Source of the DNA: Pseudomonadota bacterium | Lineage (GTDB): Bacteria > Pseudomonadota > Gammaproteobacteria > UBA1113 | DNA: 64,000 nt | Assembly: GCA_021781965.1 (NCBI GenBank) | Contig: JAJXVU010000002.1 | Coordinates: 28,788-92,787 of the forward strand | Reading direction: 5' to 3' | Shown: positions 13,953-30,814 of the stretch, one piece after another | Layout: every line of letters begins with the position of its first letter | How positions within the stretch are numbered: the first letter of the stretch is position 1 | Notes under the pieces: generated by a model | Databases searched by the model: none | The model's input: the letters and a program-made list of their open reading frames with translations, nothing else | Told to the model about the DNA's origin: nothing | Position numbers and translations under genes: made by a program

Positions 13953-14297
13953 TTATTTACTGTGCAATAATCTTCTAATCAACAATGACTTGAGATCTTT
14001 TCTAACATCCGTAATGACATGAATATAAATTTGCTCTTCGTCGTGTATGGACAATTTCACCTCATAGATAATACGATTCATACCTGAAATCACTTGACGA
14101 TATTGCGTTTGACCTATGAAAATCAATTCTTGCGGAATAACTCCACTCAAAGGGAAATGCGCAAGATTTTCTATAACTTTTTTTATACCTTTATAGCTAG
14201 CTCGCCAGGATGTTAAGCCAAATTCTTGGCTAAGATATTGCTTTAAGTCTTTCAAATCGTCTTCTGCTGATTTAAGCAAAAACACAGAAAGTGCCAT
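13953..14297 (-). CDS. ParE/RelE-family type II toxin
   Basis: 114 aa. Sits immediately downstream of, and operonic with, a Phd/YefM antitoxin gene. Typical size and the conserved arrangement. Confidence 0.6.
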   Translation of the reverse strand: MALSVFLLKSAEDDLKDLKQYLSQEFGLTSWRASYKGIKKVIENLAHFPLSGVIPQELIFIGQTQYRQVISGMNRIIYEVKLSIHDEEQIYIHVITDVRKDLKSLLIRRLLHSK

Positions 14298-14302
14298 TAT
14301 TC

Positions 14303-14563
14303 TTACTTATCTAAGTCAGAAAAAACCTCCGTGGCAGATCTAAACAATCCCTGTTCGATTTCATGTTGGCCCAATGCCAAAATTTTAAGTAAACTTAAAG
14401 TTTCTTCTTGCTGTTCGTAAGAATGTACGTCAATCACCACAAATTTTGCTTCCCCATTTTGTGTAATAATCACAGGTTGGCGTGTTTTTGCGAGCTCTTT
14501 AGCCATTTCAGCCGTATGGCTTTTAAGATAGCTAATCGGTTTTATTTGTGTGGAAAAGTTCAT
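14303..14563 (-). CDS. Phd/YefM-family antitoxin
   Basis: Start at the ATG at 14563 (MNFSTQIKPISYLKSHTAEMAKELAKTRQPVIITQNGEAKFVVID), preceded by GGTGA. Classic YefM N-terminus. 5 bp from the toxin gene. Confidence 0.7.
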   Translation of the reverse strand: MNFSTQIKPISYLKSHTAEMAKELAKTRQPVIITQNGEAKFVVIDVHSYEQQEETLSLLKILALGQHEIEQGLFRSATEVFSDLDK

Positions 14564-14794
14564 AATAATCACCTTAACAAGTATCATAAGTCTTATTATA
14601 GACTAAATTTAGTCCTATAGATAGGCCCTTATTTCCTTCATAAGCAAAAAAATAAATTTATAACTCTTTGATTTGATTAATTTTATATTTAACACAGCTT
14701 ATTGCTTAAATTTTATCCTGCTGAATGGTAAGCAAAATACTACTGTATAAGATAGCATCCATATGATATACTTTCCTTTTTTAGGAATAAACCT

Positions 14795-19266: not shown

Positions 19267-19721
19267 TCTTTCTTCTTAATTATCGCATGTAAAAATAAAA
19301 ATGATATATTTATTCTAGGTCTTTACTGCAAAACCTCTCTGCCCCGTCATTGCGAGCCAGTGAGCGCAGCGAACAAGGCGCGGCAAAAAATGCGAGCGAA
19401 AAGCGCGAAGCGCGGCGAGTATTTTTGACGCACGTAGTGCGCCCGAAAGGGCGAAGCGCGAACGAAGTGAGAGCTGAGTCCATCCAGGGTTTAAAATACT
19501 GGATGTATAAACACCTGTGAATATTTTTAAATCTACTATCTACTATTAATTTTCGAGCGTAATCGACCAAAGCCATCGTTGCCGTTGTGTCAAACACGCC
19601 GTAAACCCATCCATGGGGGCTCGGTCGCGACGTCCTGTCGCTCACGGTTTGCCACAACTCTGCAACGATAGCTTTGGCCTTTGGTTTCGTTATTTGTTCT
19701 GTAAAAATGAAGAAAACTTAA

Positions 19722-20492
19722 TTAAGTTTCATTATCTAAGATTTCTGCTCGCGCCATCCACTCACGTTCTGCTACTTTGTCATTTTCTTCAACGTTTCTA
19801 ATATAACTAAAAACAACTTTAAACGAAATTTTTGTAAGTTCTGAGATATCGCTGCTATCACTTAAGAGCTCTCTAAAGTAGTCACTTTCAAAAATTTTTT
19901 CTGGTTCAGCTCTATTATGATTCTTATCCCAAGAAGCAGAAGTTGCTTTATCCACAAATTTACACAAGCATAATAACTCTGTTGATGAAATTTTATGGTT
20001 TGGCCAATCTAGAGAAAGTGTGGGTGATTTACTTTGCTGATATAAAACTAATGCCGATTTATCTCTATAATCTATAACCCCATAAAAAAATCTAAGATCA
20101 TTTATCTTTTTGACAATATCAATAATCTGATAGGCTGCATCTATATAGTCAGTTACATAAATAGATTGATGTGACTTGTCCGTTAATGATGATTTTAATT
20201 TATCCGCTTCTTTTAATGCATTGATAGCCTGGTGCCATTTCACATTATTGTTTTTGCATTCAGCCAGAATAGCAACTGCCTTAGAAAAATAGTTGTTAAT
20301 TTTATCTAAATAAAATAACGATTTCCTATACCTCTTGTCGAAGTAGGCTATAGCCCAAGTAGTGAACAAGCCCAGCATAGTAATAAAACCAACAGCGACC
20401 GATACCCAAACACCTATCGCGGTCCAGTTTGCTCCAGGGTCACTCCATATAGTTGGCGAGATTAAAAAATATATTCCACCCATTATATCCAC
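19722..20492 (-). CDS. Hypothetical membrane-anchored protein (single N-terminal TM, about 200 aa soluble domain); third gene of the XRE-ImmA/PIN module
   Basis: TM segment AIGVWVSVAVGFITMLGLFTTWAIAYF. No recognisable domain. 10 bp downstream of the PIN gene. Confidence 0.5.
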   Translation of the reverse strand: MDIMGGIYFLISPTIWSDPGANWTAIGVWVSVAVGFITMLGLFTTWAIAYFDKRYRKSLFYLDKINNYFSKAVAILAECKNNNVKWHQAINALKEADKLKSSLTDKSHQSIYVTDYIDAAYQIIDIVKKINDLRFFYGVIDYRDKSALVLYQQSKSPTLSLDWPNHKISSTELLCLCKFVDKATSASWDKNHNRAEPEKIFESDYFRELLSDSSDISELTKISFKVVFSYIRNVEENDKVAEREWMARAEILDNET

Positions 20493-20501
20493 CTTTAAAA
20501 T

Positions 20502-20990
20502 CTATTGACAAGTCCCTTTGCCAAGCATCATCTCAACATCCACCCATGGCAATCTACTACCCGCTTCTCTCATGCGCTGGAATCCAACGCTTGCAACTTC
20601 AACCGTGATATTTTCATTCTGAATCATCTGTTCAACTAACCATATTGTACCGTGTACTTCAACATTTAACTCTATAGCAGCTTCCCTTAGAGCCTTATCA
20701 CCCGTCAATAATTGGCAATTTTCATGTTTGGCGAGCGTCAATGCCAACATATCATTCACACTAGGCCTTATATATTTCTTATGCAGCAAATATGCCTCAG
20801 CCACCAAATCTCCATTTAGAGTTTTGCTTATCAAGCCAAGTTGCAATAAATGACTATGTCGTTCGGCTAACTCTGAAGCAAATAAGATATCAGGAACTAT
20901 AAACTGACACGGTAAACTAAACATCGCACTGGTTAGTTCTCCCTGTTCAATATCAATCAATACACTGGTATCACTGACGATCAGCAGCAT
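20502..20990 (-). CDS. PIN-like (DUF4411-type) domain protein
   Basis: N-terminal MLLIVSDTSVLIDIEQGEL, plus acidic residues in a PIN-like arrangement (NDMLALT, LLTGDKAL). Overlaps the 3' end of the ImmA gene. Confidence 0.6.
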   Translation of the reverse strand: MLLIVSDTSVLIDIEQGELTSAMFSLPCQFIVPDILFASELAERHSHLLQLGLISKTLNGDLVAEAYLLHKKYIRPSVNDMLALTLAKHENCQLLTGDKALREAAIELNVEVHGTIWLVEQMIQNENITVEVASVGFQRMREAGSRLPWVDVEMMLGKGTCQ

Positions 20991-22029
20991 ACCCGCTCTC
21001 CAAAGCCCGCAAAGATCTGAATGATTCTAGCGACATATTCATTAGCTCTGCGGCTTTGGGTTCGCCTAGGTATTCTTCGGCGATAGCATGAAAAATCATT
21101 TGTTCAAAAATATGGGTCTTTTCTTTGGGGTAAGGATCACCAGGCTCATGTTTAGACCAGCCCTTCTCATTAAACTCACTGCGCAATTGTGCATATAAAC
21201 TGTTGGATATGATTCCTATTTCCACCATTCTATGGAGAATACTCAACATGCTGATGCCAAATTCTTGCTTAAGCAAACTAAGCTCGCGAGGTTCAATATG
21301 ATTGCGGTGTTCACCCAGTATGCTAACTAAAGTTTCTTTGGGTAACAAGAATGCGCCTGCAAAACGATTACACCATTTCTCTTCATCTAACTCCGGATCA
21401 GCAAAGCCATTGAATACCAGATGACCTAACTCGTGAGCTAAAGTAAATCTTTGTCTATCTCCAGGCCACTGATTGCCGATAACAATAATCGGCATGCTAT
21501 TTATGCTCGCAGAAAAGCCATCTAATTTTGGATATTGCCGATTATCCATTTCAAATACTTTAATCCCGCGCTCTTCAAAAATATCAATGAGATCGGGTAA
21601 AGGCTCAAGCCCTAAATCCCATTGCTTGCGAATTTCATCTGCTACTGCTTCAATATCATTGTAATTGTCTATTTTTTTATGATTTAAGGAAAATGATTGT
21701 ATAGGTGGCGATGGAAATAAGCTCTCTAGTTCAACCCTGCGCTCAATTTGATCTAACATTTTGGCTTCAATTTCTTCTAATTGTCGCTTCGGCATATCGG
21801 CATGTTTGCGATACTGAATTTTTTCCAAGGTAAAGCGTTCTGGCCTAAAGAAATACTCCACCTTAACATGCAAGGCTTTTGCCAACTTAATGAGAATATC
21901 CGACGAAGGAGTCACATCGTTATCTTCATATTTTTTAATCGCCGCATGACTCAGCGCAATCTGTTCCCCCAGATCGCGTAAAGACAAGCCCAAAGCTTTC
22001 CGTGCCCGTTGAATCTTATTGCCTAACAT
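20971..22029 (-). CDS. HTH-XRE DNA-binding domain fused to an ImmA/IrrE (M78, COG2856) zinc metallopeptidase
   Basis: N-terminal IQRARKALGLSLRDLGEQIALSHAAIKKYE (XRE HTH). HEXXH zinc motif within FTLAHELGHLVF. Confidence 0.8.
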   Translation of the reverse strand: MLGNKIQRARKALGLSLRDLGEQIALSHAAIKKYEDNDVTPSSDILIKLAKALHVKVEYFFRPERFTLEKIQYRKHADMPKRQLEEIEAKMLDQIERRVELESLFPSPPIQSFSLNHKKIDNYNDIEAVADEIRKQWDLGLEPLPDLIDIFEERGIKVFEMDNRQYPKLDGFSASINSMPIIVIGNQWPGDRQRFTLAHELGHLVFNGFADPELDEEKWCNRFAGAFLLPKETLVSILGEHRNHIEPRELSLLKQEFGISMLSILHRMVEIGIISNSLYAQLRSEFNEKGWSKHEPGDPYPKEKTHIFEQMIFHAIAEEYLGEPKAAELMNMSLESFRSLRALESGYAADRQ

Positions 22030-22217
22030 AATGCACCCCTTTAGTTTACATTTTTAATTATATAACATCAATTTGTAAACTTCAACTTTTTTTGCTGTGA
22101 TAGGATAATTATGGGTCATAAGCCCCTTAAATAAAAATTAATTTATATTTATCAATAAGATATGGAGTTCGCAGCAGTGCTGCGGCTTTTGTCGGCGAGT
22201 TTGGGTACTTTAACGGC

Positions 22218-22322
22218 TAAGTAAAGAAAAATGCTCTTTTCTTTACTTATGTTGATTCTTAGTAAAGATCTCTTTACTACGCGTTATTCTAAGTAAAGAA
22301 AATCCACCTTTTGTTTACTTAA
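22218..22322. promoter_or_regulatory. Operator-like array of TAAGTAAAGA repeats upstream of the XRE-ImmA gene
   Basis: taagtaaagaaaa-atgctc-ttttctttactta is a perfect 13-bp inverted repeat at 22218-22249. Further copies: agtaaagatctctttact (22261-22278), taagtaaagaaaatcc (22290-22305) and tttgtttactta (22310-22321). Confidence 0.55.
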
Positions 22323-22394
22323 ATTGCTTATTATTTGTCTTTCGGTACATAAATAGCGTAATTACTTGAAACAACTTTTATGCGTACGATATAA

Positions 22395-23114
22395 CTACAT
22401 AACTACACAGCGACTCTTTTGAGTAGAGTTTTTTTGTTGAGCACAGTCTTCTAGAAAGGCTTTAAATTTTTCTTCATCTTTCACGCCCTTAATTACCACT
22501 ATAAAATGCTCACCTTTCTTGCGTTTACTTGCATCAACCCCATGCTCACACAACTTTTTAATAACATCATCTGCCTCCTTTATATCGATTGCGGTTATAC
22601 GCAAATGGGGAGTATGCATAGTAGCAAGTGTACCTTGAAGAATAAAATTCTTACTAAATGCATTGGTCTGATTCAGCTGCTGACATAATTTATCTAACGC
22701 TTCACTTTTATTATTAAAAAAAGTATAATGTTCTTGCATTCCATTTATACACTTGTTATATTCTTGCTGTTGTTCTTCTTGTTTAAAGTTAAAATAGTCA
22801 AGAGATAGATCTCTCCTTAAAGTACTCTCTAAATCATCAGCAGGAAAGGTTTCAAAGTCTCGACCTTTAAACATATTTGTCAATATGTTTGATATGTTTC
22901 TAGTGGTATAAATCGTGTATTGGTCTTCAGTTCTTTGCCAACTTCTTTCTAAGAGAATTTCACCTAAAGTCCTTTTTATATGTTCCCATTGAGCCATAGC
23001 GGAAGTTGTGTATGCTCCCTTATAAAAATAAGAAAGTTTTATTGGTACTAATTTTTCATCTAGACCTTCTGTAGACTCATCTTCGAGAAATACTCTTGTT
23101 GTGTCAACCGCCAT
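22395..23114 (-). CDS. Hypothetical protein (239 aa), no recognisable domain
   Basis: Long ORF with host-typical AT-rich codon usage. Acidic N-terminus, Gln/Glu-rich centre. Confidence 0.5.
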   Translation of the reverse strand: MAVDTTRVFLEDESTEGLDEKLVPIKLSYFYKGAYTTSAMAQWEHIKRTLGEILLERSWQRTEDQYTIYTTRNISNILTNMFKGRDFETFPADDLESTLRRDLSLDYFNFKQEEQQQEYNKCINGMQEHYTFFNNKSEALDKLCQQLNQTNAFSKNFILQGTLATMHTPHLRITAIDIKEADDVIKKLCEHGVDASKRKKGEHFIVVIKGVKDEEKFKAFLEDCAQQKNSTQKSRCVVM

Positions 23115-23317: not shown

Positions 23318-23806
23318 TTATAAGATGTTACAACATGGGCTTCTTTTAGCCGGATGATTCTCAGCAAATGCACGTAACTCATCAGAAATCTCAAATGTTT
23401 TCCCATTTCTAACACCTGTAACCGCTATAAAATCATAGCCGTTATCGGCCCCAAGAAAGCCCAGGTTACTATTAACTGGTTGGAAATTTCTACGTGCATC
23501 AAGCCCGCAGCCTTTTAATTCTGCGCTGAAATCTTTTACCGCCTCTTTTTCTATCCCATCGCAGCTTATACGCAGATGAAGAATCCATTCACCTTCAAGA
23601 CTGTTACATAATTCAAATTCTCTACCCATTACACTGACCGCACTATTCAACTCAGTACAGATCTCATTCAGCTGCTTCTTCAACTCAACACGCTGCTGCT
23701 TCGAGAGTTCTTTCGCACTAAGAAAATAACCGCCCCCTCCATGCGCAATCTCTTTACCAGACCCTTGTGCCGTTGTATCCACCACCCTACCTAAGCCTTT
23801 TGGCAT
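23318..23806 (-). CDS. Hypothetical protein ending in CCNIL (CaaX-like C-terminus)
   Basis: Start placed at MPKGLGRVV (ATG at 23806). The last four residues C-N-I-L fit a CaaX prenylation box of the type used by host-prenylated bacterial effectors. Confidence 0.5.
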   Translation of the reverse strand: MPKGLGRVVDTTAQGSGKEIAHGGGGYFLSAKELSKQQRVELKKQLNEICTELNSAVSVMGREFELCNSLEGEWILHLRISCDGIEKEAVKDFSAELKGCGLDARRNFQPVNSNLGFLGADNGYDFIAVTGVRNGKTFEISDELRAFAENHPAKRSPCCNIL

Positions 23807-24025
23807 AATATCCCCCTTCACGCATACCTAATTATAATAATGTGCCGTTCTAACTGAACGACATCCCAATTCGGGGCATTGTATCGTTTACAGATAAACC
23901 TGTCATCAAAAACGGTCGTTTGCAAAAAAATATTTTGCTCTAATTTTGTACTGCGCTCTCCATATAACACTTCTTCTTGACACTATGTTAAAATGCAACA
24001 TTGACAGTGTGGAACAATAATCAAC

Positions 24026-30751: not shown

Positions 30752-30814
30752 CCGCTCCCTAACGGTAGCGGCTCGGCCCATCTAATTGTAACCGAGCGTC
30801 GACCGTTAGGGAAC
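30752..30814. repeat. REP-like palindromic element
   Basis: ccgctccctaacggtagcggctcgg ... aaccgagcgtcgaccgttagggaac. Confidence 0.8.

Follow-up and report, generated by a model that had tools for sequence, protein, structure and literature searches.

Fusions of an Xre-type helix-turn-helix (HTH) domain with a COG2856 domain are often encoded in predicted operons together with PIN or RelE toxins, and a "three-component" toxin-antitoxin (TA) system has been proposed for them (Makarova 2009, PMC2701414). The PIN clusters COG2405/DUF3368 and DUF4411 were described as cotranscribed with HTH and DUF955 protease domains, as in Geobacillus, where an HTH-DUF955 gene precedes a COG2405 gene (Matelska 2017, PMC5499597). 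RosmerTA, which pairs a zinc-peptidase antitoxin with a toxin of unknown function, was named by Millman et al. (2022). ImmA-type antitoxins with diverse toxins have been confirmed and PIN partners noted (Ernits 2023, PMC10440598), and one validated Rosmer toxin, RmrT-D5 of phage Kita, is a transmembrane (TM) protein that depolarizes the membrane (PMC10440598). In the literature that we searched, we found no experimental characterization of pairs of an HTH-M78 antitoxin and a DUF3368-type PIN toxin. Here, we analyzed a locus of three genes, which we call A, B, and C, in a 64,000-nucleotide stretch of the genome of a Pseudomonadota bacterium (assembly GCA_021781965.1, contig JAJXVU010000002.1, positions 28,788 to 92,787 of the forward strand), referred to as the window. 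Gene A encodes a fusion of an HTH domain and an M78 peptidase, gene B a PIN-like nuclease, and gene C a membrane-anchored protein. The A-B core is of a kind that has already been predicted; C and the cassette-like slot that it occupies are the new part. Our preferred reading, to which we give a probability of roughly 55%, is that A and B form an autoregulated, Rosmer-like "Xre-COG2856 + PIN" TA or abortive-infection pair and that C is exchangeable cargo.

The A-B pair and its putative operator

The protein encoded by gene A has an XRE HTH domain at residues 1 to 63 (Pfam HTH_3, 1.1e-10), an M78/ImmA/IrrE zinc peptidase domain at approximately residues 150 to 270 (Peptidase_M78, 2.1e-16), and a helical C-terminal region. 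Its zinc motif reads H199-E-L-G-H203, and H199-E-x-x-H203 was kept in 76 to 77 of 77 homologues. The PADLOC model PDLC03949 for RmrA, the Rosmer antitoxin, matched A over nearly its full length (3.5e-54, residues 4 to 340), and 13 further RmrA models matched it as well, bearing out the preliminary description of this locus, which had taken A for a COG2856-type XRE-peptidase fusion of the antitoxin or regulator kind. The matches of A to the PADLOC models for capH (5.8e-14) and capP (8.9e-14) were much weaker, and that to the NCBIfam "spr1629 family repressor/antitoxin" reached 131.8 bits, under the 335-bit cut-off.

Gene B encodes a protein that matched the Pfam PIN family (PF01850) with 26.1 bits against a cut-off of 23.6, and the precomputed annotation of an identical protein and of about 120 homologues assigns them to PF11848 (DUF3368, COG2405), with or without PF01850. 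Residues D7, E40, D80, and D98 were kept in 74 to 75 of 75 homologues, down to approximately 38% identity, and the PIN acidic core of B is therefore intact. The preliminary description had called B a PIN protein resembling DUF4411 and had made conserved acidic catalytic residues a point to be checked in an alignment. The PIN assignment stood and the acidic residues proved to be near-invariant, but the family is DUF3368 instead; we found no match of B to DUF4411 (PF14367) at E ≤ 0.1. In PADLOC, B had only a weak match, to PDC-S70 (1.3e-4), and profile searches against PDB sequences found no solved-structure relatives of either B or C.

A genome scan with the B alignment yielded 80 loci, in Gammaproteobacteria, Betaproteobacteria, and Alphaproteobacteria and in metagenome-assembled genomes (MAGs) labelled Nitrospirae, Solibacteraceae, Binatia, Leptospirillum, and Acidimicrobiaceae. 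A homologue of A ended within a few bases of the start of B, or overlapped it, in 74 of the 80, across several phyla. Homologues of B were also carried by 47 plasmids (21 conjugative and 14 mobilizable), and among the listed plasmid records with annotation, every B match overlapped or adjoined a gene annotated as an "XRE family transcriptional regulator." The ratio of nonsynonymous to synonymous substitution rates (dN/dS) was 0.06 to 0.10 for A and B.

Ahead of A, a promoter scan found a -35 element TTGAAG (22085 to 22080) and, after a 17-nt spacer, a -10 element TATAAT (22062 to 22057), with a score of 10/12. An inverted repeat, GTTTACA-N23-TGTAAAC (22044 to 22080), straddles this -10 element; it is unique in the window, where zero occurrences are expected by chance. 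In about 22 of the 26 loci listed, spanning Legionellales to Betaproteobacteria and including loci in which B is only approximately 50% identical, the same half-sites are found ahead of A with the same spacing and placement over the -10 element. Because it is conserved over the -10 element of A itself, we read the palindrome as the mark of an operator to which the HTH domain of A would bind, that is, of autorepression, which is typical of type II TA operons.

Compared with the described systems, the A-B pair is closest in layout to the Xre-COG2856 + PIN TA pairs. An HTH-M78 fusion gene with the HEXXH motif lies directly upstream of a COG2405/DUF3368 PIN gene and overlaps it, the PIN acidic residues are the same, and the spread is likewise mobile and patchy and includes plasmids, so that both the fusion and the adjoining downstream PIN gene that mark those pairs in sequence are present. 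However, the three components of the earlier proposal are domains (HTH, protease, and nuclease), whereas here an extra, lineage-specific gene is appended. With RosmerTA, the locus shares an antitoxin of RmrA type by PADLOC profile and partner genes that are diverse and swappable, but it has three genes where Rosmer has two, and no defence phenotype is known for the PIN subtype of B. VapBC modules have the same PIN toxin, a DNA-binding upstream partner (predicted here), overlapping genes, and a palindromic operator at the promoter; however, VapB is small and labile, whereas the antitoxin here would be a 352-aa HTH-metallopeptidase fusion. The protease built into A suggests an activation that may be triggered by a signal and may not depend on Lon or Clp.

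Gene C and the exchange of the third gene

C has a single N-terminal hydrophobic helix (approximately residues 20 to 47) followed by DKRYRK, and its helical domain of about 205 aa is therefore predicted to be cytoplasmic. A word-indexed search of 5.8 billion proteins retrieved only four clusters, with 65 to 100% identity, all of which sit in A-B-C triplets. A HMMER profile search retrieved 93 representative proteins, 60 of them below 1e-10. Members of this family are 200 to 290 aa long and share the motifs NNxKWHxAI, HxxIY, FFYG, and RISPxxLxxLxxFxDKA; an N-terminal hydrophobic helix was present in 43 of the 44 members examined, some having two, with Lys/Arg usually following. An AlphaFold model built with four sequences only was unusable (predicted local distance difference test, pLDDT, 38). 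The AlphaFold2 model built from 44 sequences showed an all-alpha domain with a pLDDT of 91.9, and this model had no structural match in PDB or BFVD below E = 0.1.

Sequence searches did not place C in any described family, in agreement with the preliminary view of an undescribed protein with one TM helix. C had no Pfam match at E ≤ 0.1, no consistent Pfam, PHROGs, or PADLOC family was found for the C family, and no HEPN-like Rx4-6H motif was conserved in its alignment. Searches for C in phage genomes and IMG/VR gave no match, and it was absent from plasmids. The dN/dS of C was 0.14 to 0.34 at a dS of approximately 0.7 to 1.5; C is a real gene under purifying selection.

We tallied the occupants of the position after B, the third slot, across 24 distinct A-B loci, taking those in which B has 62% or higher identity to that of the window. 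The slot holds a member of the C family in 4 of them (the window, L005, L006, and L009). In three others (L012, L014, and L107), a DUF6680 protein of 212 aa with an N-terminal TM helix is encoded after a gap of 4 to 6 nt (Pfam, 3.9e-57), and in one (L105/L106) an unrelated 199-aa protein, also with an N-terminal TM helix, is encoded by a gene that overlaps B by 4 nt. One locus each has an overlapping gene for a MkoA-like protein of 1132 aa, with RNase-H-like and superfamily 1 helicase domains (L017, Legionella feeleii), and for a DUF2971 protein (PDC-S31; L025). Two loci have a more loosely placed gene, for a DUF3800 or an unknown protein, and the remaining 12 have no gene within 150 nt. In L017, the overlap between the end of the PIN gene and the gene for the 1132-aa protein (6497 to 9895; PADLOC MkoA-like, 4.6e-43) is 10 nt.

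Eight of these 24 closest loci thus carry a tightly coupled third gene (gap of -4 to +27 nt) for a protein of 200 to 250 aa that has one N-terminal TM helix, then K/R residues, and then a helical domain. No homology was detectable among the three anchored families, namely C, DUF6680, and the 199-aa protein. DUF6680 (PF20385) resembles C in occupying the same slot, in joining an N-terminal TM helix to a helical domain of about 200 aa, and in occurring also as stand-alone mobile cargo, but we ruled it out as a relative of C by BLASTP (E = 8.1), hhalign (probability, 0.9%), and a negative hmmsearch; no match to it was found among the 44 C-family members at E ≤ 0.01. Without A-B, DUF6680 matched 86 Ralstonia prophage records, of which one was inspected, and it occurs alone on Vibrio plasmids. 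In the inspected Ralstonia Mu-like prophage, its gene is an opposite-strand insert between a Mu-F-like head gene and the portal gene. This gene (L109, Ralstonia phage YO356_1, 3489 to 4031) is placed as a classic moron.

The exchange is most direct in the comparison with L105, which shares the chromosomal neighbourhood of the window on the cdd and rhodanese side. The two sequences are 86% identical from upstream of A to 24 nt before the stop of B (22249 to 20526), have no similarity across the third gene, and are 91% identical again exactly from the stop codon of C (19723 to 19639). This break and resumption indicate that the third gene was cleanly replaced while the flanks on either side were conserved. 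In all C-carrying loci and in L105, the first 240 nt past C show 83 to 91% conservation. They hold a hairpin of about 115 nt, some 40 nt downstream of C, with a consensus energy of -73 kcal/mol, which delimits the exchangeable third-gene segment on its 3′ side. Five of its pairs were kept through double changes, in three sequences only, which makes for thin covariation evidence. The hairpin could be either a structure at the end of the operon or a palindromic repeat element; no Rfam family matched it, and part of it recurs at 62541 to 62583. We also considered an integron attC site and rejected it, as no RYYYAAC/GTTRRRY cores could be seen by eye and no integrase is nearby.

Beyond the anchored proteins, the genes found downstream of A-B include type I restriction-modification (R-M) genes and a type III methylase gene, besides the MkoA-like helicase and DUF2971/PDC-S31 genes. 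Further A-B loci lie directly before hsdM in L032, L035, and the Vibrio cholerae plasmid pNDM-116-14 (L103, 2908 to 8441), and A-B overlaps hsdR by 4 nt in the Sulfuricurvum plasmid pSULKU03 (L104, 2950 to 7623). Its position inside type I R-M operons recalls nucleases such as PrrC within hsd loci.

C itself was found beside A-B in the four close clusters only; these share a syntenic locus and belong to a single small clade of Legionellales. Members of its family that are more distant occur in eight further contexts, none with A or B nearby, and a metagenome scan for the family returned four loci only, again none with A-B. Two members with approximately 52% identity to C (P0217 and P0219) lie 24 to 28 nt after a gene for an HTH_3+Peptidase_S24 (CI/LexA-like) repressor and are divergent from type IV secretion system (T4SS) genes (VirB4, TrbC, and VirB3) in an element resembling an integrative and conjugative element (ICE). 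Another (P0229, 25%) belongs to an element that also encodes a VapE-like primase and a small terminase, and lies 48 nt after the gene for an XRE protein of 79 aa. The others follow a copper oxidase gene beside IS66 (P0220, 29%), lie near an HTH gene and a PemK toxin gene (P0224, 23%), or are solitary or near Fic and TA-like genes (P0186, L090, L091, and L092; 25 to 44%). What recurs next to C-family genes in these distant contexts is therefore not a PIN gene but a mobile-element repressor of XRE type.

In L094 and L095 (4298 to 5711) and L096 (4317 to 5711), a C-family gene sits behind an HTH+Peptidase_S24 repressor gene, and the two are divergent from a T4SS operon (Phg_2220_C, TrbC, VirB3, and VirB4), a layout that suggests the regulatory switch of an ICE carrying a C-family passenger. 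A place behind a cleavable repressor is typical of exclusion or abortive-infection genes, and immunity genes cotranscribed with the repressor of a prophage or ICE include rexAB behind lambda cI and the genes for the lactococcal Sie proteins and the membrane-anchored AbiP. Likewise, C-family genes come directly after XRE repressors (HTH+S24, HTH only, or HTH+M78) in mobile elements and encode small proteins with an N-terminal membrane anchor. However, C is not known to have sequence or structural similarity to these proteins, and its large domain is predicted to be cytoplasmic.

The preliminary description had asked whether the three genes co-occur elsewhere. A-B was indeed present with every close C homologue found, but we rejected our initial impression that A-B-C occurs in two independent genomic contexts, as L006 also has hycI downstream and differs only in its upstream flank. 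The co-occurrence is largely vertical inheritance in one lineage. That lineage is narrow and, next to the hyc operon, largely syntenic, which makes the co-occurrence weak evidence of an obligate functional link, and an obligate A-B-C unit does not agree with the distribution, in which most A-B loci lack C and eight C-family contexts lack A-B. The proposal of a novel three-gene system is thus not supported: A-B is of a predicted kind and mostly occurs without C, the C family occurs without A-B, and the third slot is exchangeable. Because A-B mostly occurs without C, the slot is swapped, and distant C homologues lie apart from A-B, we read C as cargo.

Mechanism and alternative readings

In the mechanism that we infer for an A-B pair carrying C as cargo, a dimer of A would bind GTTTACA-N23-TGTAAAC over its own -10 element, keeping the expression of the operon low, and A would hold the PIN nuclease B inactive through direct binding. 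Phage infection, DNA damage, loss of the element, or a similar trigger may activate the M78 peptidase of A or cause the loss of A. The freed B would then cut RNA and stop growth, and the operon would be de-repressed. C would be dispensable for this cycle and, as cargo read from the promoter of A, would in any defence role most likely act alone as an exclusion or abortive-infection factor.

Several observations weigh against this reading. No RmrT model in PADLOC matched B or C at E ≤ 0.1, so that the locus is not callable as Rosmer and fails the strict PADLOC definition of that system, on this point only. Homologues of B were not found in phage genomes and IMG/VR contigs, and only about 8 of the 80 A-B loci have R-M genes within 6 kb, which is modest evidence for defence islands. 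Furthermore, the three unrelated third-slot proteins share the N-terminal-anchor design, and C has been retained beside A-B under purifying selection over the dS range given above; this could mean that the slot is functionally tied to A-B and is not neutral cargo.

It seems unlikely, although the evidence is mixed, that A is a fused stress switch resembling CapH/CapP or ImmR/ImmA and not an antitoxin, an option already raised for such fusions (Makarova 2009, PMC2701414). On a signal such as DNA damage, the peptidase would destroy the repression by the HTH, turning on B and then C or other cargo. The HTH and M78 domains, which CapH/CapP and ImmR/ImmA have in separate genes, are fused in A. The capH and capP matches of A and the overlap of the operator with the promoter agree with such a switch, as do the genes after A-B, which are variable and often of defence type, and the C-family genes that elsewhere follow a LexA/CI-like HTH+S24 repressor. 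However, the RmrA models fit A far better and over its full length. A is nearly always accompanied by B, with translational coupling between the two, as expected of a TA pair, and a deletion of RmrA was unobtainable in the original Rosmer work, possibly through toxicity (bioRxiv 10.1101/2022.05.11.491447).

We consider it still more doubtful that the locus is an obligate three-component system, in which the third membrane protein (C, DUF6680, or the 199-aa protein) works with A-B as a swappable sensor or effector. Such a protein might sense envelope or phage events and activate the peptidase of A, or it might be a second, membrane-directed effector released with B. This reading is kept alive mainly because the N-terminal-anchor design recurs in three unrelated proteins, at one third of the closest loci, and the swap in L105 exchanges one anchored protein for another; the retention of C under purifying selection and the membrane-depolarizing RmrT of phage Kita (PMC10440598) also fit it. 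However, an anchored third gene is absent from half of the 24 closest loci and from approximately 90% of all 80, and the length and architecture of A are the same with or without one. Members of the C family occur without A-B in the ICE-like T4SS element, in the VapE/terminase element, and solo, and DUF6680 does so as morons of Ralstonia prophages and solo on Vibrio plasmids. A bolder form, in which the position after the PIN gene in A-B modules of Legionellales type is a dedicated slot for interchangeable anchored sensors or effectors of one three-part defence system and the C family is a new class of repressor-linked membrane immunity proteins carried by mobile elements, appears improbable to a like degree.

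Finally, it is very unlikely that C is a second, RmrT-type membrane-depolarizing toxin, with one antitoxin, A, neutralizing two toxins: Rosmer toxins are diverse, that of phage Kita is a TM depolarizer (PMC10440598), and C is membrane-anchored, but no RmrT model matches C or, at E ≤ 0.01, any of the 44 C-family members, its homologues lie alone or after plain repressors without an M78 partner, which is unexpected for a constitutive toxin, and C is mostly a large, predicted cytoplasmic helical domain and not a small pore-former.

As an autoregulated TA or abortive-infection pair, A-B would add a member to a large class of TA and defence systems that has been predicted but barely tested, and the operator and catalytic residues found here make a test of the pair straightforward. 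The new material lies in the third slot, where the C family is not covered by any Pfam, PHROGs, or PADLOC model and, although its structure is predicted with confidence, lacks a structural relative. The protein swapped in at L105 and the DUF6680 proteins of the same slot are, like C, candidate new exclusion or abortive-infection proteins in Legionellales, and the slot offers a testable case of defence-cargo exchange behind a conserved regulatory pair.

Layout, surroundings, and repeats

The three minus-strand open reading frames (ORFs) that the preliminary description had reported are all present and co-oriented (Table 1). A copy of the A-B-C locus that is identical to it occurs in assembly GCA_027457125.1, and its relatives come from Legionellales, Legionella, Tatlockia, and Coxiellaceae genomes and MAGs.

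Table 1. Genes and sites of the A-B-C locus, in coordinates of the window
Feature	Position	Strand	Length	Description
Gene A	22029..20971	-	352 aa	XRE HTH + M78/ImmA peptidase; predicted autorepressor/antitoxin
Gene B	20990..20502	-	162 aa	PIN-like nuclease, DUF3368/COG2405; predicted toxin
Gene C	20483..19722	-	253 aa	N-terminal membrane anchor + all-alpha domain; third-slot cargo in the preferred reading
Promoter/operator of the A-B-C operon	22044..22085	-		Promoter scan and inverted repeat
Long hairpin 3′ of C	19565..19679	-		Consensus fold of three sequences

The tight coupling that had been proposed for these genes stood for A and B, which overlap by 20 nt, but not for the 10-bp spacing between B and C. 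The most likely start of C is the ATG at 20483, which is preceded by a ribosome-binding site, AGGTGGA, and is also called in public assemblies, with a GTG at 20492 as the alternative. From this ATG, the spacing is 18 nt, and the length of C is corrected from 256 aa to that given in Table 1. A site scan showed no terminator-like sites between A, B, and C. A promoter-like site at the B/C junction, with a score of 11/12, was rejected as C's own promoter because its -10 element overlaps the ATG of C.

The locus lies beside the hyc operon, with the hydrogenase maturation gene hycI downstream of A-B-C. Upstream, on the same strand, are ORFs of 239 aa (22395 to 23114) and 167 aa (23318 to 23821), for neither of which a family was found in Pfam, PADLOC, or NCBIfam. 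The preliminary description had placed the locus amid orphan and effector-like genes, which agrees with the upstream side but not with hycI on the downstream side. The counterpart of the 239-aa orphan at this locus in L105 is a homologue with 27% identity. The last residues of the 167-aa protein, CCNIL, look like a CaaX prenylation motif, which would fit a Legionella effector-like protein. A separate, classical TA pair, of a 94-aa Phd/YefM antitoxin and a 114-aa ParE toxin, lies on the minus strand at 13953 to 14587 and adjoins hydrogenase and hyp genes. Rfam and tRNA scans of the window were empty.

Repeats are found at several places in the window. At 22217 to 22333, 130 to 270 nt upstream of the promoter of A, there are dense direct and inverted copies of TAAGTAAAGA(A), which include a palindrome of 51 nt and a direct repeat of 45 nt at a distance of 72 nt; L105 has only part of this array, and L006 and L009 have none of it. 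The GC-rich repeat TCCGCTCCCTNACGGTCGCGGCTCGGTT is dispersed, with copies at 10319, 10667, 11324, 13879, 36731, and 62574 and inverted copies near 30771 and 39832. Its copies often form palindromic pairs, and it looks like a repetitive extragenic palindromic sequence or a miniature inverted-repeat transposable element. Tandem repeats of 99 nt are present in six copies at 8058 to 8728 and in two more at 9866 to 10030. They look like in-frame coding repeats, and their 33-aa period would fit ankyrin-type repeats. A 24-nt tandem repeat, in six copies at 61305 to 61496, likewise has an in-frame coding look.

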